The notes beneath the pieces are model-generated. The model was given only the letters and a program-made list of their open reading frames with translations, ran no database searches and was not told the origin of the DNA. Positions 1,733 through 63,981 of a DNA stretch of 64,000 nt are shown in pieces (the stretch's first letter is position 1; each line of letters opens with the position of its first letter). The stretch covers positions 32,001 through 96,000 of the IMG/VR virus record IMGVR_UViG_3300037264_003623; one strand, 5' to 3'. The DNA is from a virus. Both the position numbers and the translations under genes were made by a program.

Positions 1733-2098
1733 ATGAAAGTTGCAAAGGAGATGGTACAGCAAAACCAAGACAAGGAGAGTCTTGCCAAGGAACTCGAAAT
1801 GCTTGCTGGAGAAGCAAAGGGTATCAGCAAGGAGATCGACCGGATCAAACGGAAACTCCTCCCGCTCATGAGCCTGGGCGAGCGCATCGGCCTCGTCGAG
1901 AAGTCCCAGCGCGAGTCGCTCGACGTCTCCGAGGAGATGCTCGCGGCCCTGGAGGTGGAGCTGGGTTCGGAGGTGGTCCGCAAGGAGCTGAACACCTCGT
2001 GGCTCAGGGAGAGGATGGCGGAGGACACGACCCTCGACAAGCGCATCCCGCGCAAGGCTGGGGACCCGTTTCTCACGGTCGGGGAGAAGAAGTCGTGA
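1733..2098 (+). CDS. hypothetical coiled-coil protein
   Basis: ATG 1733 after GGAG; stop overlaps next GTG. Confidence 0.65.
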   Translation: MKVAKEMVQQNQDKESLAKELEMLAGEAKGISKEIDRIKRKLLPLMSLGERIGLVEKSQRESLDVSEEMLAALEVELGSEVVRKELNTSWLRERMAEDTTLDKRIPRKAGDPFLTVGEKKS

Positions 2099-2538
2099 TC
2101 GTCGAGGTTTACCTCCTAGTCAACATCCATGGCACGAAGACCAAGCAGTGGGTCGTCGTGGGCGCGGGCAGAGCGTTCCCCGAGGTCATCGCCAATCTGG
2201 AGGTGGCGAAGAGGATGGCGTGGCTCCTCGGGCGGGCGACCTCGCTGAAATCCGACATCGGCGTGAAGGACCGGGAGAAGGCGTGGAAGGACGCCGAGAA
2301 GGCGCTCGTCGGGGAGATCAAGAGGTCCATCTCCGTCGAGAAGAGCAAGTGCCCGCAGGGCAGGATGTGGACCGGGATGGACGACATCGGATTCACGGCG
2401 TGCGTCAGGTGCCTGCACCTGAGGGAGGACAGGGATCGGTTCAGGGTTGCCCCGGAAATGGGCACGGGCGTACCCGCGTGGGAGTGCGGGGCGATCCTCC
2501 AGGAGGTCCGGGTGGCTCGCAAGCTCGCGGACAGGTAG
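2095..2538 (+). CDS. Cys-rich hypothetical protein with C-terminal VARKLAD tag
   Basis: GTGA coupling to upstream gene; CxxC; ends EVRVARKLADR. Confidence 0.65.
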   Translation: MIVEVYLLVNIHGTKTKQWVVVGAGRAFPEVIANLEVAKRMAWLLGRATSLKSDIGVKDREKAWKDAEKALVGEIKRSISVEKSKCPQGRMWTGMDDIGFTACVRCLHLREDRDRFRVAPEMGTGVPAWECGAILQEVRVARKLADR

Positions 2539-2541
2539 GGC

Positions 2542-2880
2542 ATGGCGAACAATGGCTGGTACAAGACGGGCTGCATGCCCAAGGAAGATCCGGCCACCGA
2601 CAAGCAGCTCTGGTTCATCAGGAAGTACCACGAGGCGGTCCTCGACGTGCTGGAGCCGGAGGAGCGGGTCTCCGTCGAGCTGATGGGGTTCCAGGAGTGG
2701 ATGGGGACCCTCACCAAGGCGGAGGCGTCGGGGGTCATCGGGATTCTGAAAGGCGAAACTGTGGCCCACGCGGTGTCCAGGAGCACCGAGGTTGGATCGC
2801 GGATGGTCGCCATGTCGATCGAAAAGAAGCCCAGTAGGAAGTGGTTCGACACCGGAATGACAAGGAGGAAAAGGTCATGA
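2542..2880 (+). CDS. hypothetical protein (PATDKQLWFI motif)
   Basis: ORF coupled to neighbours. Confidence 0.65.
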   Translation: MANNGWYKTGCMPKEDPATDKQLWFIRKYHEAVLDVLEPEERVSVELMGFQEWMGTLTKAEASGVIGILKGETVAHAVSRSTEVGSRMVAMSIEKKPSRKWFDTGMTRRKRS

Positions 2881-3317
2881 CGAAGAGGATCATCAGGGAC
2901 GCTGAGGTGGCCGAGTTCCTGGCGTCGTTCAGGGAGAGGATACAGGGGGAGCAGGAGCGGAGCCCCGTCTGGCAGGAGCTGGTCTCGTTCCCCGGATGGG
3001 GTATGGCGAAGTTCACGCCCGAGTTGGCGAAGATTCCCATCATCCCCACGGCGGAGCTCCCAGACCCGAGGATGACCGCGCAGGGCAGGGCCGACTTCGT
3101 GAAGGGGCAAGAGGGCGCGGTCACCGACGAGGGGAAGGGTAAGCCGACTCCGGGTGCGATGACCTCCGTGGCGATGCCGGGCGGGGTCAACCCGTGGGCG
3201 GACGTCCGCAGGCCGACTGACAAGGGCCCGGTCTTCCTCGCGTCGAAGACCGACGTCCCGCCGCCGTTCCCGGGGGCGTGGGAGAAGCGCGAGGGGGGAT
3301 GGTTCAGGAAGGAGTAG
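2877..3317 (+). CDS. hypothetical protein
   Basis: AGGAGG RBS, ATGA overlap. Confidence 0.65.
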   Translation: MTKRIIRDAEVAEFLASFRERIQGEQERSPVWQELVSFPGWGMAKFTPELAKIPIIPTAELPDPRMTAQGRADFVKGQEGAVTDEGKGKPTPGAMTSVAMPGGVNPWADVRRPTDKGPVFLASKTDVPPPFPGAWEKREGGWFRKE

Positions 3318-3320
3318 ACC

Positions 3321-3491
3321 GTGCTGGAAGAACTGGGAAGCGGGATCAGCCACGGCTGGATTCCCAAGATCATCTTCGGGATGGGGATCGCCTTCCTCGC
3401 TGCGGGGCTGGTGAGAGAAGAGGATTGGCTGATGGTCGCCGGGACGTTGATGATTACGGGCGGAGCGATCTTGAAGTGGGAGAAGGAGTGA
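3321..3491 (+). CDS. small membrane protein (two predicted TM helices)
   Basis: 56 aa, below ORF-track cutoff; IIFGMGIAFLAAGLV and WLMVAGTLMITGGAIL; GGAG RBS. Confidence 0.6.
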   Translation: MLEELGSGISHGWIPKIIFGMGIAFLAAGLVREEDWLMVAGTLMITGGAILKWEKE

Positions 3492-3664
3492 CCCATGCCC
3501 GGCAGGGAAGACCTTATCGACGCCAAGCGCAGGCTATACGTCGAGCTTCTCAAGATGCAGCCCGACCAGGCAACCGACTCTGACCTGGAGCTGATGACTG
3601 CCCTCATGAAGGACGCGGGCATCCAGAGGATTCTCGACAAGCGGCTGAAGGAAAGGTCAGGGCC

Positions 3665-4111
3665 ATGCCCTACGAATCAGTAAGCTCGAATTGCTACAGG
3701 ACGGGGCAGCAGAACTGCCACATCTGCGAGAACGCGGACTGCGGCGACAACACAACCCCAGACATCGTCAGGCTAAGGGAAGATCTGGCGGCTGCTCAGA
3801 AGGAGCGCGAGGAGATCATCCGGGCCGCGAAGCACTCTACTACCGACCCGAAACTTGCGGCAGCCAACGTAGTGATCAAGAACATGAAGCAGGATCTCAA
3901 GATCGCCAAGGAGATGCTGAAGCGGGCGGAGAAGCAGCGGGACGAGATCGCGGACGAGTGCCAGAAGATGGGGGCGCGGCTCGACGAGATGGAGAAGGTG
4001 GTGGTCGAGGCACTCGTCACGTTCGGTGGGAAGACAATCCCCCTGAAGGAGATGGTTGACGCGGTGAAGACGGCCAAAATTATCGGGAAAAGCCTTGACG
4101 AAAGCAAGTAA
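3665..4111 (+). CDS. Cys-motif plus coiled-coil protein
   Basis: CHICENADCGDN followed by heptad repeats. Confidence 0.6.
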   Translation: MPYESVSSNCYRTGQQNCHICENADCGDNTTPDIVRLREDLAAAQKEREEIIRAAKHSTTDPKLAAANVVIKNMKQDLKIAKEMLKRAEKQRDEIADECQKMGARLDEMEKVVVEALVTFGGKTIPLKEMVDAVKTAKIIGKSLDESK

Positions 4112-4122
4112 TCAGATATAAT
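4095..4122 (+). promoter_or_regulatory. sigma70-type promoter TTGACG-N16-TATAAT
   Basis: Member of the repeated promoter family. Confidence 0.8.
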
Positions 4123-4148
4123 AAAGGCGTCGAGTAAGTGAGGCGGTC

Positions 4149-4880
4149 GTGAAGATCGTGGACGGAAGGATCGTGGTCCTTGATCTGATAGCGGGGAGCC
4201 ACCTCTACGGGACCAACACGCCGGAGTCGGACGTGGACCTGCGCGGGGTGGTCCTCCCGAAGCCCGAGGAGATCATCGGCCTCGCCCGGTTCGAGCAGCA
4301 GGAGAAGCACGGGGGCGAGGATACCCTGTACTACTCCCTCCCGCGGTACATCCAGCTCCTTCTGAAGGGGAATCCCAACGTCATGGAGTGGATGCACGCA
4401 GACAAGAACGACTATCTCGTATGGGGGAAGATCCCCGCTGAGTTGTGGGCGAACCGGGACCGGTTCCTCTCCAAAAAGCTCGGCCTCGCGGCCCTGGGCT
4501 ACCTCAATGGGATGACCAAGAACATGCACTTCGGTGGGCCTACGCGGGACCTCGGGGCGAAGCGGAAGGCTCTTGTAGAGAAGTATCATTACGACACGAA
4601 GAACGCCGGGCATGCGGTCAGGATGGCCCGGGAGATCGCGGAGCTCTTCGAGACGGGCATCTTCAACGTCAAGAGGACGAAGGACCGGGAGGAGCTGATC
4701 GCCATTCGCAACGGCTCTCTCACCCTGGAGCAGGCGGAGGAGCTGATCGCCAGGGAGACCGAGCACGCTGAGCATGCGTTCGAGTTCAACTGGGCTGGCA
4801 TCGCCGAGAAGCCTGACACGGCCTGGGCGAACGACTTCCTCATGAGGGTCCAGAAGGCCATCGTCGTCGGGGAGGCGTAG
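4149..4880 (+). CDS. Pol-beta superfamily nucleotidyltransferase (RlaP/YcgL-like)
   Basis: GSHLYGTNTPESDVDLRG (GS..DxD); LLKGNPNVME; YDTKNAGHAVR. Confidence 0.85.
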   Translation: MKIVDGRIVVLDLIAGSHLYGTNTPESDVDLRGVVLPKPEEIIGLARFEQQEKHGGEDTLYYSLPRYIQLLLKGNPNVMEWMHADKNDYLVWGKIPAELWANRDRFLSKKLGLAALGYLNGMTKNMHFGGPTRDLGAKRKALVEKYHYDTKNAGHAVRMAREIAELFETGIFNVKRTKDREELIAIRNGSLTLEQAEELIARETEHAEHAFEFNWAGIAEKPDTAWANDFLMRVQKAIVVGEA

Positions 4881-4884
4881 CTAA

Positions 4885-5352
4885 ATGCCGAGGTACGCAA
4901 GTCAGACGGAAGTGACCGTTGACCGTTCGAGGTCTGAGATCGAGCGGACCTTGGCCCGGTATGGAGCTGACCAGTTCATCTACGGATGGAACGCCAAAGG
5001 CGCGACGGTGGGCTTCCGCATGTGCGGTCGGATGATCCGATTCAACCTTGTGCTTCCGCCCAAGGACAACGAGGCGTTCACGAGGACGCCGGGGGGCAGG
5101 CGGGAGCGAAGCTCCGAGGCGGCCCTCGTAGTTTGGGAGCAGGCATGCAGGCAACGGTGGAGGGCACTCGCCCTGGTCATCAAGGCGAAGTTGGAGGCGG
5201 TTGAATCCGGGATCACCACGTTCGAGGATGAGTTCCTCGGGGCAACCCTTCTTCCCGATGGGAAGACGGTTGCGGAGTCAATCGGGGGCCAAATCACAGA
5301 TGCGTACAGGTCGGGCAATGTCCCGAAATTGCTCCCGATGCTGGAGGGATAG
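4885..5352 (+). CDS. conserved phage hypothetical protein
   Basis: QRWRALALVIKAKLEAVESGITTFEDEFL, a motif familiar from phage proteins. Confidence 0.75.
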   Translation: MPRYASQTEVTVDRSRSEIERTLARYGADQFIYGWNAKGATVGFRMCGRMIRFNLVLPPKDNEAFTRTPGGRRERSSEAALVVWEQACRQRWRALALVIKAKLEAVESGITTFEDEFLGATLLPDGKTVAESIGGQITDAYRSGNVPKLLPMLEG

Positions 5353-7696: not shown

Positions 7697-8089
7697 GTGA
7701 AGGGCCGAGTGAATGGCCGGGACAGGAAGGTTCTGCAATTCAGGCAGAATGCGGGCGAGGGGCAACCGAAGGTGGTCGTGATGCCCTCTCCCGAAGCGGT
7801 CAGGCGGGTGGCGCAGGAAGCGGCGCGCCATGACGTCGGCGAGGTCGCCAGGGTCCTCAGCGAGAAGATTTCCATGATCTTCGCCGAGGAGGTCAAGTCG
7901 GCGGTGCTCCTCAACGCCCTGATCGAGATCCTCATCCAGAAGGGTGTCTTCACCAAGGATGAGTACAAGGAGCTGGTCAAGAAGCGCGAGGAAGAGACGC
8001 AGGACCGGTACGTCAGGGCGAAGGAGGCGATCAGAAGGGGCGAGGACCCCGGCCCCATCGTCCTGGGCAAGGAAGGCGAGGGGGGGTAG
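7697..8089 (+). CDS. hypothetical protein
   Basis: GGAGG RBS, ORF. Confidence 0.7.
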   Translation: MKGRVNGRDRKVLQFRQNAGEGQPKVVVMPSPEAVRRVAQEAARHDVGEVARVLSEKISMIFAEEVKSAVLLNALIEILIQKGVFTKDEYKELVKKREEETQDRYVRAKEAIRRGEDPGPIVLGKEGEGG

Positions 8090-30904: not shown

Positions 30905-31583
30905 ATGTTGGAGTGGCGTAATGGCTAACGCACCGGACTCAGGATCCGGGTCCGAAAGGACACCTGTGGGTTCGACTCCCACCTCCGACATTAAAGACTT
31001 GGCAGACTCATAGGAACGGGTTATAATATGTCGTCCAAGTAGGAGGACGACAGATGAGAAGGGAAGAGGATCTGCGAAGGGTGGTTTCCGAGTGCGTGTC
31101 TTTTGCCCAGGTTCTTCGACGTTTGGGATTGAAGCAGGCTGGCGGAAGTCAGAGCGAGTTGAAGAAGAGGGTGGAGGCGCTCGGGATAAGCACAAGTCAT
31201 TTCCTTGGCAGGAGGACGAACTCGGGGGCGCACCATCGCGGCGGGTGCCCCAAGAAGGCTTGCTCGGAGGTATTGGTTCGTAGCGTGAGGCGGCATCCCT
31301 ACCTTCTTCGCCGGGCCTTGCTCGAATCGGGGAGGGAGTACCGCTGCCAAGGAGACGGTTGCCCGGTAAGGGATGAATGGCTTGGGAAGAAGATCGTCTT
31401 GCAGGTGGATCACGTTGATGGAGACAGGAGCAACAATAGGGCTTCCAACCTTCGATTCCTTTGCCCCAACTGTCATTCGCAGACAGGCAACTGGGGAAAG
31501 AACGAAGGGGGAACGGATCTGACCACTAACGCGAGGCAGTGCCAGAACTGGAGACGGAAACGCCGGGAAGCATCGGGCACGGT
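30905..31583 (+). mobile_element. tRNA plus HNH cassette inserted in a tRNA-Leu anticodon loop
   Basis: Flanked by complementary tRNA halves. Confidence 0.8.
30907..30990 (+). tRNA. tRNA-Leu(CAG) nested in the insertion
   Basis: GTTGGAG/CTCCGAC-A; CCGGA-CTCAGGA-TCCGG. Confidence 0.9.
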
Positions 31584-31789: not shown

Positions 31790-32033
31790 GGGGCATGGAA
31801 ATCGCGGATAGCCTATCCGCGCCGCTATACCGCATCTATATCCGGAACGGTGAGTTCACCCCTCGGGACCTACCCCCGGCGATCTTTTTCCCCCTTCTCC
31901 AGATGTGGATTCCTGTCGAACTTCGCACTTCTCGCGGAATAGGAGGGAATCAGAGGACGATTCCTGTAAGAAACGCGATCGACAGGTGTTCAGGAGGGAT
32001 GAAGTGAGGTTGAAGTGAGGCTGGAGGTGGCTG

Positions 32034-35991: not shown

Positions 35992-38355
35992 ATGACCGAC
36001 GCGGACATCTTCTACAGGGAGCCCGGCACTGGATGGAGGAAGTACTGCATCCGGTCGGGGACGCGGAAGGAGATCGAGGAGACGGCCAGGGATCTCCTCA
36101 AGAGCCTGCGGGAGGAGAGCGCGAGGTCCTCGGTCAAGATCGTGTGGCCGGGGAACCGGACGACGATGGTGCGGCTCCAGAGTGGTGCCGCGAAGGGGGC
36201 GTGATGGACCAGAAGATGAAGGCTCTCATCAAGAAGTTCGCCGACTTCTTCCTGATGGATCCGGCGTTCAAGGACATCCCGGACGACATCATGGGGGCGG
36301 TCTCCGACCCGGCTTTGGCCCCTATCCTGGCCTCGACGGCGCACGTCTTCCTCTTGGGGAAGGAGGACAACGGGACGGACGAGGAGCTGGAGAAGGAAGG
36401 GGACGCCCTTTTCCATGCGTTCTATCTGGAGAGCCTCAGGCGGATGTTCGCCTCCGACCGGCCGAAGACCTTCGCCTTTCGGGACCGGAAGGTCCGCGAC
36501 TTCATGAAGGTCTTGGAGTTCGCGTTCGACGAGGACGAGGCGATCCACTCGATGCGTCTGAAGATCCAGGGGCTTATCGGCATCGAGCTCTCGGTCGAGA
36601 AGATGCGGGAGATCATGCAGGAGACGATCGCGGACGCGATCAGGCCCCACGAGGGAAGATGATCGAGCAGGGCGAGCCGGTGAAGGCAAGGTTCGGGAGG
36701 ACCGCGCCTGTCGGGGATGGGTGGGTCTACGGGTGCATCGTCTGCAAAGTCAGGCCGAGAACCCTGACGATATGCAAGTGTCTCTCCGACGGGAACGAGT
36801 ACGCCTTGTGCTTCCCGTGCCTGGACGCGATGGGCGACCTCGGGATGGTCGAGGAGAGGATCGAGACATACGTCTAGGAGTCCGGCAACAACTTCACTTT
36901 GAGGCATACGACGACAGTCAACAAGCACGACCTGACCCGGTGTCCAAGGGACGAGGGCCTCCGGGCGGCGGTCATGCTGGCGAGGCGGTGAGCGCACACC
37001 GTGTGCGCGGATCAGAGGAAGTGCGGGTACTGCGGAATGACGGGCGATCGGCGCACACGGTGGAAGATGTTCCAGTGCTCGTGCGGGAAGATCCACTACT
37101 TCTGCGAGCTCTGCTACAGGGACCTCCTGAGCAAGGGGATCATCGTCCGCAGGGGGCGGAGGGGCGGGGGGAAGAAGGACTTCCTGAAGGCGTGCCCGGC
37201 GGAGGTCCGTGTCGCCGAGGCGATTATGCGGGAGAACCGCAGGGTGGACTGGGAGGTCACGAACCTGTGATCTGCGATCTATGCAAGACGGCTTTCATCT
37301 CCAGGGGGTCGGTTCGGGACCTCCAGTGCGGGTGCGGGAGCGTCTACCGGGCGTGCCTGACGTGCAGGCGTGCCCTGCTGAGGCAGGACTTCGCCTACTA
37401 CGAGGGCAAGGGGATGGTCCTCAAGATATGCCCGACGGCATTAGAGGTCGCCCAGAGGCTGATGGATGGTGGGGACGGCGGATGAGCGAGTCTCTATGCG
37501 TGATCTGCGGGAAGGGGCAGTACCAGCCCGACGAGCAGGGGGGGTACATCGGGATGCGCGACGTGTTGTGCGCGTGCGGGGATGTCCACCGCGTCTGCAA
37601 GCGGTGCTGGACGAACCCCGGGAGCAAAGTCCTGGCCGAGGCGTTCTCCTGGGATTCCAAAACCTGGATGGGGGACGCCAAGTTCGACGTGTGCCCGAAG
37701 GATATTCTGGTGGCCTGGAGGTTGATGGGATGATCAGGTTCAAGAAGAGCATGTTCGGGTTAGGGGCCAACTCCTGCGTCTCGCCGACGAAGGGGACGGC
37801 GGACAAATGCGAGGGGTGCCCGGTCAAGGGCCTGGTCGGGATCGTGGTCGTGGTGAAGGTGGGGCCGAGGCCGATCGGGAGGGGATGATGCCCAGGGAAG
37901 ACCCGATCCGCGAGTACTTCGAGATCGATCTCCCCGACAAGAGATTCCGTGAGCAGAACGAGCGCCTTCAGCGGAAGATCGACGAGGGCATCGGGATGAG
38001 GGGGAGTCCGCCGCGTTTGAGGAAGACATGGTGGATCTCCACTCCAGGGATGGATTCCAAACGTGCGTTCGGTCTCTCCGATGCCATTGAGGCGCTCGAC
38101 TCCCCGGACATGATCTCGGATATGGGCCACATCCCTCTGGTCCGGTGGAGCGGGTGTTTGTGGCACCTGATGGTTTCCTCCCACTGCAACCCGGCCAGGG
38201 TGGTGTCGGCGTGCGGAGAAACCTTCCCGATGGGAGAGAGGGTGGAGGGGAAACTGGAGATCGAGCCGAACCGGAACCTGACCTGCATGGGGTGCTGGAC
38301 CCACGTCGAGGCGGCCAAGGTCGCCCTGATCCTGGCGGGGGAGAGCGATGAGTGA
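35992..38355 (+). other. run of small early ORFs (35992-36204, 36204-36662, 36659-36877 or 36991, 37001-37270, 37267-37485, 37482-37733, 37885-38355)
   Basis: Four related CxxC..CxCG..CxxC..CP proteins ending in the tag. Confidence 0.6.
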
Positions 38356-39979
38356 GGCCGACCGCTTCGCCGGATTTCCATCGCCCTCGTGGGCATCGCC
38401 CGCTGGCTGGGCCCGGCTTCACCTGGGGAACTGCGTCGAGGTGATGAGGTCCCTGCCTGAGTCCTCGATCGACGCGATCGTGACCGACCCCCCGTATGGT
38501 ATTGAGTTCATGGGGAGGGATTTCGACAAGTTGGGGCAGGGGCCGCAGATGCAGGAATGGCACCGGGCGTGGGCGGTCGAGGCTCTTCGAGTGGCTAAAC
38601 CCGGTGCCTTCCTTCTTGCCTTTGGCGGAACCCGGACTTGGCATCGACTTGCGTGCGCGATTGAGGATGCAGGATGGGAGATCAGGGATACTCTCATGTG
38701 GATGTACGGGCAGGGATTTTCTAAAAGCATGGATGTCTCGAAGGCGATCGATAAGGCGGCGGGGTCTGATCGGGAGAAGATCCCGGAGGGGAACTCCGTA
38801 AAGCGGATGGTGCCGGGGGCGGACCAATACAAGACTAATTCCTGGATCAAAAGCGACGATCACATGTACCAGTCGGGGCGGGAGGTTCCGGTGACGGAGG
38901 CCGCGAGGACTTGGGAGGGCTATGGCACATCGCTAAAACCAGCCTGGGAGCCGGTCGTGGTCGCCCGGAAGCCCCTGGCCGGGACGGTGGTTGATAACGT
39001 CCTGAAGCACGGGACGGGGGCGCTGAACATCGATGGGACGAGAATCAGGATCGCGCCCACTTCTCAGGATGGCTCTCGTAGTAGTCCTGATGATAGCATT
39101 TGCGACACATGCCCTTCGCGTGAGGTTTCCCATACTGTCCGCAGCGAGGACATTCACATGGAGGCCTCGTCTGCTCCTCAACGCGACGGTCGTAGCGTCC
39201 TTCGACCCAGTGAATCCGAATATGAGATCGAGAATCAATCACGCATAGATTCTCGGGCGAGTCGTCGTCCTTCCTACCGTTTAGATGATGGACTTGCTCA
39301 TGCGGAAGAAGAGCCCGACCAAGCATACGTTCAGCAACGACTCGGTGATACCGAGTCTCCCGTCCGTCAACTAAGCAGCAGGTGTATCCACGCGGGTCTT
39401 TCCACATGTTTACATCGTACTACACCACATGTTGAAAGTCAAGGCCGCTTCCCCGCGAACGTGATCCACGACGGGAGCGAGGAGGTGGTAGGGATGTTCC
39501 CCGATCGCAAGACGACCTGGATCGATCCGTCTCATGCGAACAACCGGGGCGGGGATTTCCTGGGGGCTCTTGGGCATCCCGGGATGCAGGGGTTCAACGA
39601 CTCCGGCTCCGCCGCCCGCTTTTTCTACACGTCGAAGGCTGATGCGTCCGAGCGGTGGTTCTACTGCCGGATCTGCCAGGGGGCCTACCCCGCGTCCGCG
39701 GAGCAGGGGCACCACCACGGGAAGGGGCTGGGGAAGTGCCAGCACATCTTTAGACACCCGACCGTGAAGCCCTTGTCTCTATGCTCTTGGCTCTGCCGCC
39801 TCGTCTCGATGCCAGGGGGGAGCGTGATCCTCGATCCGTTCATGGGGTCGGGCTCGACGGGCGTGGCGGCCCTCGTGGAGGGCCAGCGGTTCGTTGGGGT
39901 GGAGATGGACGGGGAGTTCTTCGCCCTATCGGCGGCCCGGGTCGCGGACGCGAAGCGCCAGCCGGGCCTCTTCGACTGA
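38348..39979 (+). CDS. DNA amino-methyltransferase (N6-A/N4-C, beta class) with an in-frame insertion
   Basis: DAIVTDPPY, LKPAWEP, HPTVKP, ILDPFMGSGSTG. Confidence 0.9.
   Translation: MSEADRFAGFPSPSWASPAGWARLHLGNCVEVMRSLPESSIDAIVTDPPYGIEFMGRDFDKLGQGPQMQEWHRAWAVEALRVAKPGAFLLAFGGTRTWHRLACAIEDAGWEIRDTLMWMYGQGFSKSMDVSKAIDKAAGSDREKIPEGNSVKRMVPGADQYKTNSWIKSDDHMYQSGREVPVTEAARTWEGYGTSLKPAWEPVVVARKPLAGTVVDNVLKHGTGALNIDGTRIRIAPTSQDGSRSSPDDSICDTCPSREVSHTVRSEDIHMEASSAPQRDGRSVLRPSESEYEIENQSRIDSRASRRPSYRLDDGLAHAEEEPDQAYVQQRLGDTESPVRQLSSRCIHAGLSTCLHRTTPHVESQGRFPANVIHDGSEEVVGMFPDRKTTWIDPSHANNRGGDFLGALGHPGMQGFNDSGSAARFFYTSKADASERWFYCRICQGAYPASAEQGHHHGKGLGKCQHIFRHPTVKPLSLCSWLCRLVSMPGGSVILDPFMGSGSTGVAALVEGQRFVGVEMDGEFFALSAARVADAKRQPGLFD
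39045..39407 (-). CDS. HNH endonuclease nested antisense inside the MTase
   Basis: YHRVVAERMLGR.L...EQVHHLNGRKDDDSPENL...H; C-terminal CxxC..CxxC. Confidence 0.85.
   Translation of the reverse strand: MWKDPRGYTCCLVDGRETRYHRVVAERMLGRALLPHEQVHHLNGRKDDDSPENLCVIDSRSHIRIHWVEGRYDRRVEEQTRPPCECPRCGQYGKPHAKGMCRKCYHQDYYESHPEKWARS
39414..39442 (-). promoter_or_regulatory. antisense promoter TTGACT-17-TACGAT of the nested HNH (leaderless)
   Basis: ATG 7 nt after -10. Confidence 0.75.
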
Positions 39980-40076: not shown

Positions 40077-40116
40077 TTGACGAAAGGGACGAAACGTATA
40101 TAATATGGGTGTCAAG
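40077..40116 (+). promoter_or_regulatory. early promoter with GTCAAG
   Basis: Repeated family. Confidence 0.85.
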
Positions 40117-52308: not shown

Positions 52309-52812
52309 ATGTACGCGACCAAGCCATCGACGCAGGAGACCTACGAGCGCAGGATCAAGGTCTTCCGCATGAAGATGCGGGGCCTGAGCCACACGTCGAT
52401 CGCCAAGGAGCTGAGTGTCACTCGGAACGCGATCATCAGGGACGCGAAGTGGATCCAGGAGCACTTCACCCAGCTCGCGGCGGATGCCGATCGAAACTCC
52501 GAGATGGGCATGGCGATGGCGAAGCTGGAGGAGATCGAGAAGGAGGCCATGTTCAACTATTCCGAGACGGAGAACCCGAAGGCCAAGAACGACTTCCTCC
52601 TGACCGCCATCACCGCCTGCGAGAAGCGGATCAAGCTGATGATGGACGCCGGGATCATCTCGAAGGCCCCTGTGGACCTGAACCTCACGATGGACTTCTC
52701 GAAGATGTCCACCGAGGAGTTGGTCCAGCGCAGGCGCGAGGTCGTGAACCGTCTCGCCACGTTCGGTGTGGCGGCGGCTATGGGGGCTGATGGTGAGCAA
52801 GCCCAAAACTAA
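52309..52812 (+). CDS. putative terminase small subunit
   Basis: HTH (GLSHTSIAKELSVTRNAIIRD) plus helices, directly upstream of TerL. Confidence 0.65.
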   Translation: MYATKPSTQETYERRIKVFRMKMRGLSHTSIAKELSVTRNAIIRDAKWIQEHFTQLAADADRNSEMGMAMAKLEEIEKEAMFNYSETENPKAKNDFLLTAITACEKRIKLMMDAGIISKAPVDLNLTMDFSKMSTEELVQRRREVVNRLATFGVAAAMGADGEQAQN

Positions 52813-55800
52813 GGTCCCGAAGCCGGACATGGCGGCGCTCCGGAACGACCTGACCTACCTCGCCCGCCTCGACGGCGAGATCTCGGGGCGGATCAAGTCT
52901 CAGGACCCGAGGACGTATGGCCTTCCTGACCTCCTCCGACCCAAGGAGGACGGTGAGACGGAGGAGCAGCTTGTCGATCGGCAGAACCGGGAGATCAAGG
53001 ACCTGATCGAGAAGCAGCTCTGGGTCCTGAAGGACGCGAGAAGGCTCGCGATCAAGCTCTCGCCCCCGATGGTCGACTTCATCGCCACGATGTTCTACCG
53101 GCGGGCGAACCTCGCGATCCTGTGGAAGGGGCGCGGCTCCGGCGGGACCCTGTGCGCGGCCATCCTCGTCTGGCTCTGCCTCGTCTACCACCGGATGTCG
53201 TTCACCAGCATGGCCGGGTGCCTCCTGCCGGGCACGCTCGTCTCCACAAGGAGGAGGGGGTGGGTGCCGGTGGAGGACGTGTCTGATGATGATGAGGTGG
53301 TGGGGCGGGACGGGGTGGTCCGCAGGGTAGTCTCGAAGACCTCGAAGGAGTGGGACGGTCCGATCACTAAGTTGGAGCCCCACGGTTTCGACGGGAACTT
53401 CTTCACCTCTGACCACCGAATCTGGGTCCTTCGTGATGCGGTCGAAGAGGATAAGCGCGGGCATCTTGTTGGGCAGGATATTCGGCGGTGGGACACCATG
53501 TCTCCGGAATGGGTCCCGTGCGGAGAGGTCACGAGGCGGGACGTGTTTGTCCTCCCGAGGCCGAAGCGGACGGGCGTCCTGCTGCCGTCCCTGATGGTGT
53601 CGACCGGCGTCGGGGGCAAGGGGGAGAAGGTGGAGGTGCCTTGGACGCCGGATCTCTGCCGATTCATCGGGTACTGGCTTGCCGAGGGTAGCGTCTATCG
53701 ACTCAAGGATGGGGGTCGATTTGTTCGGTTCGATGTGGGGAAGCGGGATCAGTGGCTTGATGACCTTCAGGATCTGATCGTGCGGTTGTTCGGCAGGAAG
53801 CCTTCCTACGATGAGCCGGGGGGGGATCTGACACTTGAGGCGAGGGTGCGGTTCGGGTCGAAGGATGTGGCCCAGTTCCTGGAGGACAACTTCGGGACCG
53901 GGGCGGTCGGAAAGCGCATCCCGTGGGAGATGGTGGTGGGTCTCGACGACGAGTGCGCGATGGCCCTACTCGCCGGTTTCCTTCGGGGAGATGGGGCCGT
54001 GGACATGACGAGCCGAGGGGGGCTCGACGTGTCTCTTTATACGGTCTCCCCTGCCCTCTCGTCCGGGATCTACTGGCTGTCTTTGCGCCTTGGCCTGGTC
54101 CCGTCGCTGGGGATCTCGAAGCCGAAGAATCGCAGCGGCTTTCACAAGGTTCACGACGGGTGGAGGATGCGGTACGGGTCCATCGACGCCGATCGTCTTC
54201 TGGAGGAGGCGTTCGGTTGGCGCTCTCAGAAGGAGAGGGTTTCGAGGCAGCGTAGGGTGTGGGTCTCCGAGGACCGGGTGTACGTCGGCGTGAGGGACGT
54301 GAAGCACTCGACCTATCAGGGCGAGGTGTGGGACCTTGAAGTCGAGGGGGACCCGTCGTTCTCCGTTCCGATGATGGAGGTTCACAACTCCACCGAGCAG
54401 GCTAAGCTGATCTACCAGTACACCAAGTCCTTCTGGGAGTGCTTCCCGGTCCTGTCGGAGTCGCTCCTTGAGGTGGACCCCCTCCAGACCGAGACCAGGC
54501 TGAAGAACGGGGTCATCCTCAAGATCATCAGCGCGTCGGAGAAGCAGACACGCGGCAAGCACAACCCCGGGTTCATCGTTGACGAGTCCTGCCAGTCGTC
54601 GCAGAACGTGGACTACCTGATCCAGGCCGCCATGCAGGGCTCGATGTCCGAGCCCAACCACATGGTGGTGGTGCTCTCGACCTTCCACTACCCGATTGGT
54701 CTGTTCCAGGAGCTGTGGGACTACGCCGAGGAGCGCGGGTTCAAGCGGTTCAACTGGGACTGCGTCCTGCCCGGAACGTGGATCATCACTGCCAGGGGCC
54801 TCATCAAGATCGAGGAGGTGGTGGCGGGGGATCTCGTCCTTGCCGAGAACGGCAGGTTCGAGACGGTGGAGAGGGCGTGGTCGTCGCAGGTCTCGGGCGG
54901 GGCTGTCCGAATCTTTCCGTATGGATGGACCGAGGGGATCGAGACTACACCAGACCATCGTTTCAAGGTTCGTAGGGATGGCCGGGACGATTGGGTCGAG
55001 GCGTCGAAGATCCGCGAGGGGGACGATCTTGTTTTCCCGCGTCCGCAGAGGGCGGGGGTTTCGGTCGATCATCTGGGGTCGCAGATCTCGCCGGACTTCG
55101 CCCGTTTTCTCGGGTACTGGTACGGGGACGGGTGGCTTGATGGGAACCGGGTCGGCATCTCGTTCGGAGATCCCGAGAAGTTCAAGGAGGACTACCTGTC
55201 GCTCGTGGGCGGGCTGTTCAAGGCCGACGTTCGTCTGAGGCATAGGGAGCCCAACGAGCAGGGCAGGTTCGACAATGGGCCGCTCGCTGACTGGATGAGG
55301 ACGGTTGGGTATCGGGGCGGGGAGAAGCATGTCCCGATCGAGATGGTCCTTGGGATGTCGGACGACGCGCTTCGGGAGTTCGTGACCGGGATGCTCAGGA
55401 CGGATGGGTGCGTGACGTTGGCGAACGGGGTGCCGGTCGTGAAGTTCACCCAGGTCTCCTCAAGCGTGACGTGCGCCGTGTTTCTTGCGTGCGCCAGGCT
55501 TGGGGTGTTCATGGCCGTGGACAGGAGGCGGCAGTCCACCTTTGTCATCGAGGGGAGGGAAGTATCGGGCCAGGACTGGTGGATGCTTCGGTCGGGGGGG
55601 AGGGACACGGATCGGCTCATGGGGTGGCTCGGGGAGTCTACGGATAGGGTTATGAGGAATGGGCAGCACTCCCTGGATGGGGACGTGTATCTTACGCGGG
55701 TGAGGAAGGTCGAGCGGAGAGAGTACGCCGGACTCGTATTCGATCTGGCGGTCAAGGACGTCCACTCGTTCTCGATGCCCTGGGCGGTGGCCCACAACTG

Positions 55801-58162
55801 TTACGACTCGATGTCCCCCTGCAACGAGGGGCTGCTGACCGCCACGGAAGGAGACCCGGACGCCCTGGAATTCTGTCGGACGCAGTGCCCGCTGACGGAG
55901 AAGCGGTCGAACCTCGACGCCGAAGGCAACCAGGATGGGTGGAAATACATCGGGTGCGGCGGGAAGGCACGGCACTCCGAGGGGTTCCAGACCAGGGCCA
56001 ACATGATCCTGGCGAAGAAGATGAACCGGGGGACGGACGTCTTCGAGAACGAGTACGAGAACAACCGGCCCAAGTGGATGCAGCCGATCTACAACCCCGA
56101 GCTCGTCGACCAGATTCTCGTGCCCGAGACGTGGCCGCTGCCATCGGCCTCGGACGCGGAGGCCCCTGACGTCGTGGCGGGTAGGGTCATGGGTGATAGC
56201 GGGTTCGAGATCGTCGAGAAGTCGGTGGGGATCGACTGGGGGTTGGAGGGGCAGACCGCTCTGGTCCTGGCGGCCCTGATTCGGTTCCATCGTTCGAGGC
56301 CGGTGGTGCCCTCCAAGGGTCTCCCGGATGGACCGCCGGTCGACTGGTGCATCGGGATCCTGGAATCCGAGTTCCTGTCGGGGAAGCTCACGTCCGAGGC
56401 CATTAAGGTCCTCATGATGTGGCAGGAGATGTACGGGGAGAACAACTTCTTCGTCTACGGCGACGCGAGCCACCCATTCAACAACCTGGAGGTCGAGCAG
56501 GCCGGGTTCAACACCAACAACGTGCAGTTCGCCAAGTGGAAGGACTATGGGGTGGGGAACTGCATCAAGTATCTCGTGACGCCGGGCAAGCTGTTCATCA
56601 GGGAGAACCTGCACACCCTCCTGGATCAGATGAAGCGGTACAGGAGGGACAAGTTCGGGAGGCCGATTAAGAAGGACGACCACGGTCCTGACGCATGGAT
56701 GTCCTATCTCGATGCCAAGACGAGAGTTATAACACGTTCGGGATGGACCCCGGTGGGAAGGCTGGGTGTGGGGGTTGAAGTTCTGACGCATGCCGGAAGG
56801 TTTCGTCCGATCGTCAGGTATGAGCCCGCCCGCTACACGAGAGGGAGTCTTGTGGAGGTGAACTTTGCGGGTCAGACGCATCCGGTCGATGCCCATCGAG
56901 TGACTCTTGAACATCCGTTCCAGCTTGATGATGGTTCATGGGTTGAGGCTGAGAACCTGAAGTCGGGGATGAGGGTCCGGTGTCTGGCCTCTCGATGTGC
57001 TAGGTGCGGGATGAAGATCCCCTGGTCGCGCAAGTTTTGTGACGGGTGCGTAGGGAAGGGACGTAACGTGAGATGGAAAAATCCTGGGGAGCGCGAGCGG
57101 GTAGAGGCCGAAAAGAAGGCGGAGGCTCTCCGATCCGAATACGCGACGGGAGCGCGAGACGCGGCCACGAACGCAAGGGCTGCGACAGCGGCTCGGGCCG
57201 ACATGATCCGGTCGAACCCTGGGGAGAGAGAGAAGGTCCGAGAACATCTGAGAGCGATTCTTCCGCTGGTGAATACGCCCGAGAAGAGGGTACGGCAGTC
57301 ACATCTGATGAAGATGCTTCACGCCAGGGAGGGATTCTTTGATCATCTTCGTACCCTTGAAGGGAGGGAGAATGCCCGTCAGCGGGTCATCGCACGGATG
57401 CTTGCTGATCGTCAGATTCCCTTCAACTGCCGTTTGAGGCACTTCACCGACATCGAGCGGGAGATGTTCGACTCGTTCGTGAGGGCGGGATTCGAGCCGG
57501 TTCATAATCTTCGGGTTGGACGATGGTTTCTTGACGTTGCTCTCCCGGAGTTGAAGGTCGCGGTGGAGTGCGACGGGGGAAACTGGCACAACTCGAAGCA
57601 GGCTCGGGAGAGGGACGCCAAGAAGGACGCCTACTTGAGGGGACACGGATGGGAGGTGTTCCGGTTTTCAGGGAAACGGATCAAGGACGACGTGGACGGG
57701 TGCCGGGACGATGTTCTGCGGGTTGCGGCCAACCACGAGGGTCTCTACGAGTTCACTTCGATCGAGGTCGTCTCGGTGAAGATCGTCGAGATGAAACGGC
57801 CACGGACGGCGTACCACTTTGAGGTGGAGGAGGACCGGAGCTACGTGGCCCGTGGGATCGTCTCCCATAACTGCTCGATGCTCCACTACCGGTTCGAGGA
57901 GAGGTTCCACGAGGTGTACGACATCGAGGCGGCCCCGCCGAAGGCCGCTTCCAGCGCGATGCCCATCCCCGCCCCCGTGGCGGGGGCGTTCGGGGTTGCC
58001 CCAGTCACCTGTTCGCCCGACTTCGGGGGGGATTCCTTCTCCCAGCCGGTCCTGTTCGGCGGCGTCCAGGCCCCTGCGATGGATCGTCCGGCTGGTTCTC
58101 CTATTGACACAAGGGGCAAATCACGGAAGACTGGTGGTAACGGTTCCGTGGTCGTCATCTGA
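52790..58162 (+). CDS. terL: terminase large subunit with three inteins (about 664 aa after splicing)
   Basis: KGRGSGGT, STEQA, FIVDE, VLST; nuclease GIDWG, DAS, KDDHGPDA. Confidence 0.88.
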   Translation: MVSKPKTKVPKPDMAALRNDLTYLARLDGEISGRIKSQDPRTYGLPDLLRPKEDGETEEQLVDRQNREIKDLIEKQLWVLKDARRLAIKLSPPMVDFIATMFYRRANLAILWKGRGSGGTLCAAILVWLCLVYHRMSFTSMAGCLLPGTLVSTRRRGWVPVEDVSDDDEVVGRDGVVRRVVSKTSKEWDGPITKLEPHGFDGNFFTSDHRIWVLRDAVEEDKRGHLVGQDIRRWDTMSPEWVPCGEVTRRDVFVLPRPKRTGVLLPSLMVSTGVGGKGEKVEVPWTPDLCRFIGYWLAEGSVYRLKDGGRFVRFDVGKRDQWLDDLQDLIVRLFGRKPSYDEPGGDLTLEARVRFGSKDVAQFLEDNFGTGAVGKRIPWEMVVGLDDECAMALLAGFLRGDGAVDMTSRGGLDVSLYTVSPALSSGIYWLSLRLGLVPSLGISKPKNRSGFHKVHDGWRMRYGSIDADRLLEEAFGWRSQKERVSRQRRVWVSEDRVYVGVRDVKHSTYQGEVWDLEVEGDPSFSVPMMEVHNSTEQAKLIYQYTKSFWECFPVLSESLLEVDPLQTETRLKNGVILKIISASEKQTRGKHNPGFIVDESCQSSQNVDYLIQAAMQGSMSEPNHMVVVLSTFHYPIGLFQELWDYAEERGFKRFNWDCVLPGTWIITARGLIKIEEVVAGDLVLAENGRFETVERAWSSQVSGGAVRIFPYGWTEGIETTPDHRFKVRRDGRDDWVEASKIREGDDLVFPRPQRAGVSVDHLGSQISPDFARFLGYWYGDGWLDGNRVGISFGDPEKFKEDYLSLVGGLFKADVRLRHREPNEQGRFDNGPLADWMRTVGYRGGEKHVPIEMVLGMSDDALREFVTGMLRTDGCVTLANGVPVVKFTQVSSSVTCAVFLACARLGVFMAVDRRRQSTFVIEGREVSGQDWWMLRSGGRDTDRLMGWLGESTDRVMRNGQHSLDGDVYLTRVRKVERREYAGLVFDLAVKDVHSFSMPWAVAHNCYDSMSPCNEGLLTATEGDPDALEFCRTQCPLTEKRSNLDAEGNQDGWKYIGCGGKARHSEGFQTRANMILAKKMNRGTDVFENEYENNRPKWMQPIYNPELVDQILVPETWPLPSASDAEAPDVVAGRVMGDSGFEIVEKSVGIDWGLEGQTALVLAALIRFHRSRPVVPSKGLPDGPPVDWCIGILESEFLSGKLTSEAIKVLMMWQEMYGENNFFVYGDASHPFNNLEVEQAGFNTNNVQFAKWKDYGVGNCIKYLVTPGKLFIRENLHTLLDQMKRYRRDKFGRPIKKDDHGPDAWMSYLDAKTRVITRSGWTPVGRLGVGVEVLTHAGRFRPIVRYEPARYTRGSLVEVNFAGQTHPVDAHRVTLEHPFQLDDGSWVEAENLKSGMRVRCLASRCARCGMKIPWSRKFCDGCVGKGRNVRWKNPGERERVEAEKKAEALRSEYATGARDAATNARAATAARADMIRSNPGEREKVREHLRAILPLVNTPEKRVRQSHLMKMLHAREGFFDHLRTLEGRENARQRVIARMLADRQIPFNCRLRHFTDIEREMFDSFVRAGFEPVHNLRVGRWFLDVALPELKVAVECDGGNWHNSKQARERDAKKDAYLRGHGWEVFRFSGKRIKDDVDGCRDDVLRVAANHEGLYEFTSIEVVSVKIVEMKRPRTAYHFEVEEDRSYVARGIVSHNCSMLHYRFEERFHEVYDIEAAPPKAASSAMPIPAPVAGAFGVAPVTCSPDFGGDSFSQPVLFGGVQAPAMDRPAGSPIDTRGKSRKTGGNGSVVVI
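53219..54388 (+). mobile_element. intein 1, LAGLIDADG (390 aa)
   Basis: G|CLLPGT..TSDH..GYWLAEG..LAGFLRGDG..VHN|S. Confidence 0.92.
54761..55798 (+). mobile_element. intein 2, LAGLIDADG (346 aa)
   Basis: D|CVLPGT..TPDH..LGYWYGDG..GMLRTDG..AHN|C. Confidence 0.92.
56702..57871 (+). mobile_element. intein 3, Ser1, Vsr/DUF559-like endonuclease (390 aa)
   Basis: M|SYLDAKT..TLEH..LDVA..VECDGGNWH..RD..KD..L...GW..SHN|C. Confidence 0.88.
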
Positions 58163-63078: not shown

Positions 63079-63981
63079 ATGCAGACCCCCGAGTCTGCCA
63101 GGATGCGGCTCTTCGCGGGGGGCCTGCGGCCTGAGAACCAGGCTGTAGGCTCCCCGCTTGGTATTGGCCTTCTGTCCAAGATGAAGTCGTCCGCTGGAGG
63201 GCGTCAGTGGCCCCCGGCAGCCCCCAAGGAGGCCGACTTCACCGTGGTGGACATGATGTGCCAAGCTCTTCTTGGGGGCCAGGAGACCCTGGTCGAGCCC
63301 ATCGGGGTGGGAATCCACAGGCCGTACAGGGTCGAGTTCCTCGACGGGATGGACTCCGGCCCGATGACCACGAGGCGGGCCGCCCTCAAGACGATCTACT
63401 GCCAGTACGAGAACAAGCGGTACTGCGCCTCTGTGGACTTGGATGTGACGGGGCCGGAGCGGGAGATCCTCTCCTTCGAGCTGGACCGCATGTTCGGGTT
63501 CGACCTGGTGCCCCCGACCGTGGGGAGAGAGATCGAGAAGGTCGGGTTTGGGAGCGTCCAGGCGTGGGTGGACTGTCCGACGGCGTGGCAGTGGATCGAG
63601 CGGGGCTACGACTACCGCGAGGACAAGACGAACCCCTGGCTCCACCGGCTTGCTGCCTTCGACTTCATCCGGGGTGAGATCGATCGACACTCGAACAATT
63701 TCATCATGGACGACCAGCGGCGGGTCTACGCCATTGACAATGGGTACTCCATCGTGAAGGGTGACGACCGGACCTGGATGAGGTCGAGCGCGGGGAAGCA
63801 CCTGGTGGGCACGCCCATCCATCCCGGAGTCATGGTGCAGATCCAGGCGATCGACGAGGGAAAGGCGTTCGACCTCGTGGACCGTGGCCGCTTCAAGAGC
63901 GGCGAGGCCGACGGGGTGGTCAAGCGGATCAGGGAGATGAAGGGTCTGACGGAATGGCGGAAGCTCGGCGATCTCTGGTAG
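63079..63981 (+). CDS. PI3/4-kinase-like kinase, paralog 3
   Basis: ALK, REILSF, FDLVPPTV, IDRHSNN, AIDNG. Confidence 0.85.
   Translation: MQTPESARMRLFAGGLRPENQAVGSPLGIGLLSKMKSSAGGRQWPPAAPKEADFTVVDMMCQALLGGQETLVEPIGVGIHRPYRVEFLDGMDSGPMTTRRAALKTIYCQYENKRYCASVDLDVTGPEREILSFELDRMFGFDLVPPTVGREIEKVGFGSVQAWVDCPTAWQWIERGYDYREDKTNPWLHRLAAFDFIRGEIDRHSNNFIMDDQRRVYAIDNGYSIVKGDDRTWMRSSAGKHLVGTPIHPGVMVQIQAIDEGKAFDLVDRGRFKSGEADGVVKRIREMKGLTEWRKLGDLW

Follow-up and report, generated by a model that had tools for sequence, protein, structure and literature searches.

A candidate splicing-free HNH endonuclease cassette on the strand opposite to a phage DNA methyltransferase gene, within the variable loop

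Phage endonuclease genes have been described within other genes in several arrangements. The ShiLan domain is a stop-free, non-splicing insertion in the mycobacteriophage DNA methyltransferase (hereafter, methylase) gp65, which contains a hidden HNH gene in frame 3 of the same strand (PMC11855218). The insertion was predicted to loop out of the methylase (Arsenault, Gosselin & Gogarten 2025, Genes 16:178; PMC11855218), and hidden HNH genes of this type are also associated with Gosselin et al. 2023 (PMC9957025). How the hidden HNH is translated is left open in PMC11855218, in which none of the words antisense, opposite, reverse, and promoter occurs. Furthermore, actinobacteriophage inteins are known that carry antisense LAGLIDADG or VSR-like homing endonucleases (bioRxiv 10.1101/2025.01.02.630785, citing Gorbalenya 1998 and Gogarten 2002). 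In this study, we analyzed a 64,000-nucleotide stretch of DNA (the window; positions 32,001 to 96,000 of the IMG/VR record IMGVR_UViG_3300037264_003623), which derives from the 109-kb record of an uncultured virus and contains an HNH endonuclease gene of 120 amino acids (aa) on the minus strand (39045..39407), inside a plus-strand methylase open reading frame (ORF; 38348-39979).

The window methylase belongs to the same family as ShiLan gp65, which has the motifs GALNID...GRWPTN. In both cases, a stop-free insert without intron or intein signature is placed between conserved residues, the host frame is predicted to be disordered over the insert, and the HNH has zinc fingers; the hidden HNH of ShiLan is 50% identical to the window HNH over aa 7-62. 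However, the ShiLan HNH lies in frame 3 of the methylase strand itself, at an EPxxxA(R/V)KP site approximately 30 aa upstream and with a duplicated flank, whereas the window HNH occupies the loop between NIDxxR and GRxPAN and has its own promoter-like element. Since it is encoded opposite to the methylase, and the ShiLan type requires a second frame on the methylase strand, the window is a variant, and not a member, of the ShiLan type. The same-strand hidden HNH is therefore the known part of this arrangement, and the antisense orientation, the promoter-like element, and the site are new. The antisense-endonuclease inteins likewise carry an endonuclease antisense to a host ORF whose frame stays open, but their filler is flanked by splicing blocks and excised, whereas the window nuclease is an HNH and no splicing domain is present; the filler should therefore remain in the methylase. 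I-HmuI and other phage HNH homing endonucleases, which are intron-encoded or free-standing, share with the window HNH the catalytic core and a conserved site in a conserved gene; unlike it, I-HmuI is encoded in a sense-strand group I intron. Rickettsia palindromic elements, reportedly described by Ogata et al. in 2000, are selfish sequences that enter host genes in frame and are translated as part of the protein. They resemble the window cassette in that a functional protein tolerates the additional peptide, but they are short non-coding repeats with no complete opposite-strand gene and promoter.

We consider it likely, with a probability of roughly 0.75, that the locus holds a splicing-free HNH endonuclease cassette that is translated through as a loop of the methylase, with the HNH made from a transcript of its own on the opposite strand. 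In the proposed mechanism, a mobile-type cassette consisting of a promoter-like site, a leaderless ATG, and the 120-aa HNH gene would occupy the variable loop of an orphan phage methylase in antisense orientation. The insert would not be removed; the methylase mRNA would be read straight through the complementary strand of the cassette, and the read-through would add a disordered, sequence-unconstrained loop of approximately 130 aa between two conserved motifs. The methylase frame may be kept stop-free by selection, or by the selective survival of insertions. The HNH would probably cut insert-free alleles near the DNA coding for NIDxCR and GRxPAN, and the cassette would then be copied in by repair (homing).

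The HNH gene encodes an HNH_3 core followed by a C-terminal CxxC...CxxC zinc ribbon. The product matched PF13392 (HNH_3) with an E-value of 5.8e-8 and 32.7 bits against a gathering cut-off of 24.8, and PHROG HNH families also matched. Both the minus-strand HNH and a lower G+C content had been noted in a sequence-only reading of the window that preceded this analysis; consistent with the latter, the G+C fraction was 0.53-0.57 over about 39025-39550 and 0.62-0.69 in the flanks. An exhaustive protein search found 12,370 relatives at E<=1e-3, some of which were full-length at approximately 50% identity, whereas a word-based protein search found only one, probably because nested HNHs go uncalled as genes. 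Among 50 aligned sequences, the catalytic residues H40, H41, and N53 were invariant and H62 was nearly so (at least 90%), and the four Cys residues were near-invariant. The AlphaFold2 (AF2) model of the HNH had a mean predicted local distance difference test score (pLDDT) of 95.9. The top match of this model in the PDB was the homing endonuclease I-HmuI (1u3e), although the match was weak (E 7.8e-3, template modelling score 0.45).

The methylase that surrounds this gene is one uninterrupted ORF of 543 aa, which matched the DNA methyltransferase family PF01555 in Pfam (E 6.9e-28) and was predicted by a gene caller as a single protein of 511 aa (P0001). DPPY (aa 47-50) precedes FMGSGST (aa 498-504), which is the order IV...I of beta-class N6/N4 enzymes. 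All 68 family-invariant columns of an 81-sequence alignment, including DPPY and GSG (aa 500-502), are retained, and the methylase therefore does not look like a pseudogene. The N-terminal core (aa 1-233, 38348..39046 on the plus strand) ends in the conserved GALNIDGTRI, and the C-terminal core (aa 366-543, 39443..39976, plus strand) extends from GRFPANVIHDG to the region of the S-adenosylmethionine-binding motif I; both were modelled confidently by AF2 (pLDDT 85-97 over aa 21-125 and 83-94 over aa 471-530, respectively).

Between the two cores, the methylase frame contains an insert of 132 aa (aa 234-365, 39047..39442, plus strand), which is hydrophilic and predicted to be disordered and replaces the usual variable loop of approximately 40 aa. 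AF2 gave no secondary structure for aa 243-361 (pLDDT 32-41), in contrast to the well-folded model that the same DNA gave in the HNH frame. Among 114 homologues, the spacing from GALNIDxxR to GR(F/W)PAN was typically about 40 aa and variable in sequence, with a range of 24-63; the outliers were one of 220 aa, which is likely a motif mismatch, and P0015 with 134 aa. The latter is a 512-aa homologue, in which the insert is at the same site as in the window and ends in TTPDIENK before GRWPAN. These comparisons bear out the loop of roughly 130 aa in a variable region that the sequence-only reading had described. Of the best 120 family members, only 2 had more than 100 aa inserted here. The TGA stop of the HNH gene overlaps the methylase codons I233/R234, and at the other end its -35-like hexamer directly abuts the GRFPAN codons; therefore, the cassette fills the entire loop.

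As a separate feature of the methylase, a second variable region (aa ~437-470, 39650-39760) is rich in Cys and His (CxxC ... HHH ... C). This segment is common to the homologue P0002 and missing from most relatives, and it may be a zinc ribbon.

The cassette was found again in HNH-based searches of viral contigs, metagenome contigs (with a four-sequence HNH alignment), and GenBank phages. Ten other loci (L001, L015, L016, L094, L096-L099, L105, and L108) carry it antisense at the same methylase site and with the same relation of the two frames, and their HNHs are 35-65% identical to that of the window. Two metagenome contigs (L103 and L146) carry a related antisense HNH in methylases of this family, but at a third site that lies downstream of GRxPxN; there, too, the host frame is open. 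One carrier, L094, is the cultured Mycobacterium phage MKC-IRE-02 (PP711298.1), in which the region is annotated as one methyltransferase coding sequence (CDS) only, with a full-length product of 517 aa; a literature search found no paper on this phage. Same-strand hidden HNHs also appeared in the scans (L002, L011/L012, L112, L129, L151, L155, L156, L167, and L169), and all of their host frames are open.

Some of these loci contain further nested or duplicated sequences. The 774-aa methylase ORF of L015 (IMGVR_UViG_3300018476_000251, 1874-4198, minus strand) holds, besides the antisense HNH, another nested ORF (2142-2693, same strand). It is situated in the next variable region, where the flank is duplicated (SRFFY ... 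TRFHY); an HNH-like motif was seen in it by eye, but Pfam gave no match. In L001, a second antisense ORF of 404 aa (3749-4963, plus strand), which is Cys-rich, lies within the host ORF (2369-5347, minus strand) just after the methylase DPPY. A Vsr-like appearance of this ORF by eye was not taken as evidence, as Pfam gave no match and the ORF lies in the shadow frame, in which openness is uninformative (P0 = 1.0). The same-strand inserts of L002 (2222-4084, plus strand) and L095 (ShiLan gp65) are placed at the EPxxxARKP site and flanked by a diverged duplicate of the motif (EPVILARKPL ... PIILARKPL and YEPVCVAVKP ... FEPIVVARKPL), which suggests that a copy of the flank arrives together with the same-strand cassette.

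The two reading frames were compared. Over the HNH ORF of the window, the methylase frame contains no stop, and the other two plus-strand frames contain 3 and 11. The HNH and methylase frames share codon position 1 and are therefore not codon-aligned, as the sequence-only reading had it. When the HNH was shuffled synonymously, the methylase frame of the window was open in 1.8-1.9% of the trials, and 2.3 stops were expected. In all 13 antisense loci (the window and 12 others), the methylase flanks are in one frame with no stop between them, whereas the remaining two host-strand frames over the HNH ORFs contain 118 and 24 stops. The sequence-only reading had named methylase-frame stops in related alleles as evidence that would speak against it; the 12 other loci contain none. 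For the 11 loci that share the site, approximately 25 stops were predicted by the shuffles, with 3.8 and 8.4 of them in the two low-GC loci (Fisher-combined p 5e-6). As a control, the corresponding antisense frame was read in 112 free-standing relatives of the HNH. It contained 2.9-4.6 stops per 100 codons and was stop-free in only 6 of the 112, against 13 of 13 nested genes (Fisher p 1.8e-13). The loci are mutually related, and these p-values consequently overstate their independence, whereas the direction of the result is unambiguous.

Substitution rates, which the sequence-only reading had proposed to compare in both frames, were calculated pairwise for eight cassettes. In the HNH frame, the amino acid identity was 55%, with proportions of nonsynonymous (pN) and synonymous (pS) differences of 0.34 and 0.74, respectively. 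The same bases in the methylase frame gave an identity of 27%, with a pN of 0.46 that exceeded the pS of 0.35. The HNH is under purifying selection, and the peptide in the methylase frame is constrained only to remain open.

Upstream of the HNH gene, the minus strand contains the promoter-like arrangement TTGACT-17-TACGAT (39442..39414), with the -35-like hexamer at 39437..39442 and the -10-like hexamer at 39414..39419. This arrangement and the leaderless ATG had both been pointed out before, and the -10-like element also recurs in relatives. A consensus scan found 3 such sites in 2.3 kb, compared with 0.4 in shuffles. The -10-like hexamer ends 6 nt before the ATG, which thus begins 7 nt after it, and no Shine-Dalgarno sequence precedes the ATG; this spacing implies that the putative HNH mRNA would be leaderless. 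A TAnnnT hexamer 6 nt upstream of the ATG is present in 5 of 6 ungapped diverged cassettes, and L098, L094, L001, and L097 have one at this same distance. In relatives aligned without gaps from the ATG, the hexamers at this position are TACAAT, TACACT, TACACT, and TAGAAT, and TATCAC in L015. The lower-GC relatives L016 and L105 have TATAAT followed by the Shine-Dalgarno sequence AGGAGG in place of the leaderless arrangement. Leaderless starts in actinobacteria usually have a TAnnnT -10 element about 7 nt upstream, and one carrier of the cassette, as described above, is a Mycobacterium phage. The motif is a putative promoter element of the HNH gene.

A direct repeat had also been reported near the HNH start. 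We confirmed it as the 9-nt CCACATGTT in two copies, one of which spans the HNH start codon (39402-39410) and the other of which is in the promoter spacer (39425-39433). The repeat is not conserved in the related cassettes, and its interpretation as a target-site duplication or as a signal of an upstream ORF was dropped for this reason.

The distribution of the insert was examined on methylase trees. The insert needs 6 state changes on a 128-row tree and 4 on a 47-row IQ-TREE tree, and the window pairs with the insert-free P0002 (support 95-96, with 96 on the 47-row tree); the long-branch rows L096, L105, L108, L103, and L146 were left out of the 47-row tree and of the topology test based on it. 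Between the window and the other nested loci, the HNHs are 47-65% identical and the methylase cores 37-46%. Insert-free methylases are 51-56% identical to the window methylase and thus closer to it than the insert-bearing ones. This contrast between HNH and methylase identity fits a spread of the cassette between diverged methylases.

Several observations weigh against the interpretation as a read-through cassette with its own promoter and homing activity. For the window by itself, the open frame reaches only modest significance (P 0.019). The -35 element is poorly conserved, TTG being kept in 3 of 6 ungapped cassettes of the leaderless type and in L099, and an unexplained TCAACAT block in the promoter spacer is conserved among relatives. 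The native loop of approximately 40 aa is wholly missing from the window methylase, and methylase activity with the insert is therefore not guaranteed. The low pLDDT of the loop may arise partly from the scarcity of aligned homologues there. Finally, the approximately unbiased (AU) test did not reject a single origin of the insert-bearing methylases (p 0.125).

Among the other explanations, the one that survives best is that the HNH is not a homing element but a domesticated partner of the methylase, acting either as a restriction-modification-like (RM-like) or exclusion nuclease that spares DNA bearing the mark of this methylase or as an antisense unit that tunes the methylase. A similar idea was raised in PMC11855218 (section 4.2), and HNH genes do recur beside these methylases: a separate HNH CDS adjoins the methylase of MKC-IRE-02, and gp64 of ShiLan is located upstream of gp65. 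The long-term purifying selection on the HNH across a divergence of 35-65% and the single ancient origin allowed by the AU test would also be expected of such a partner. We nevertheless regard it as unlikely. Most members of the methylase family, as described above, are without the cassette, and the nearest relatives of the window methylase are insert-free. Furthermore, related HNHs occupy other sites, on either strand, of the same methylase family, like selfish invaders, and the closest solved fold is that of a homing endonuclease.

In a more specific form, the nested pair would be a functional unit in which the antisense HNH cuts DNA that does not bear the mark of its own host methylase, an idea to which we assign a low probability. 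If it were true, the HNH targets would be rival phages, the host chromosome, or insert-free alleles; the nesting would make a minimal RM or exclusion module that recombination cannot separate, and the relative amounts of the two proteins would be governed by head-on transcription.

It is very improbable that the insert is removed by an unrecognized intron, an intein-like element, or ribosomal bypass to leave a mature methylase without the loop. Like the sites of introns and inteins, this one is bordered by highly conserved motifs, and inteins with antisense endonuclease genes have been reported (bioRxiv 10.1101/2025.01.02.630785). However, neither the features of a group I or II intron nor those of an intein were found in the insert. 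In the window, Rfam gave no intron match at E<=1, and the 10 related loci had none that reached the gathering score, and the RNA fold of the insert was not unusually stable (z-score -1.65). In the window methylase, Pfam detected no intein or Hint domain. Inteins begin with Cys or Ser and end with His-Asn followed by Cys, Ser, or Thr, whereas the insert begins with RIAPTS and ends with HVESQ ahead of a G; its junctions are thus not intein-like, and its host-frame sequence is so unconstrained, as shown by the 27% identity and pN > pS, that it is incompatible with a splicing domain. An intron would need no open frame, yet the frame is open in all 13 loci. The sequence-only reading had described a splicing-free homing element without visible intein or intron signatures. 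The splicing-free loop is supported by the lack of signatures and the 13 open frames out of 13; homing of the cassette is likely only, given that one clade of insert-bearing methylases is not rejected in the AU test.

Least probable of all is a methylase killed by the insertion, with an open frame that is due to chance or is a recent relic and with only the HNH being of importance: the methylase is dispensable in related phages (PMC11855218 section 4.1), its native loop is lost, and the window by itself gives a modest P-value, but all 13 antisense loci are open, compared with 6 of the 112 controls, their methylase flanks share one frame in every case, each of the 68 family-invariant residues is retained, and even the low-GC relatives, in which 3.8 and 8.4 stops were expected, are open.

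Additional features were observed outside the nested pair. In the gap after the methylase, a near-consensus promoter-like sequence (TTGACG-16-TATAAT, 11/12; 40077-40104, plus strand) is located just before an ORF that starts at 40109, and a terminator-like hairpin is present on the minus strand (40089-40072) in the same gap. Other HNH_3 matches in the 109-kb genome are at 7752-7886, 63399-63458 (31399-31458 of the window), and 104849-104968, all on the plus strand, and the genome seems to be heavily colonized by endonuclease genes. One of these three additional matches sits in an open frame of 1049 aa. Residues ~150-1027 of a 1798-aa ORF (52766-58162, plus strand) match phage proteins that otherwise have nothing in common (portal, terminase, methylase, and anaerobic ribonucleotide reductase). 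Such a pattern usually indicates inteins and would point to at least one in a large structural gene.

Under the reading that we prefer, that of a splicing-free HNH cassette translated through as a methylase loop, approximately 360 bases seem to encode proteins on both strands, and the selection on each strand is measurable, acting on the sequence of one and only on the openness of the other. A homing-type gene can, on this reading, colonize coding sequence without an intron or intein. The HNH's own antisense leaderless transcript would answer, for this variant, the question of how a hidden HNH of the ShiLan kind is expressed. Masked by the methylase ORF, such HNH genes escape gene callers, and censuses of phage endonucleases are therefore probably biased. 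The presence of the cassette in a cultured phage of Mycobacterium smegmatis makes the expression of both genes, the activity of the methylase with its loop, the cleavage specificity of the HNH, and homing, all of which we infer here, directly testable.

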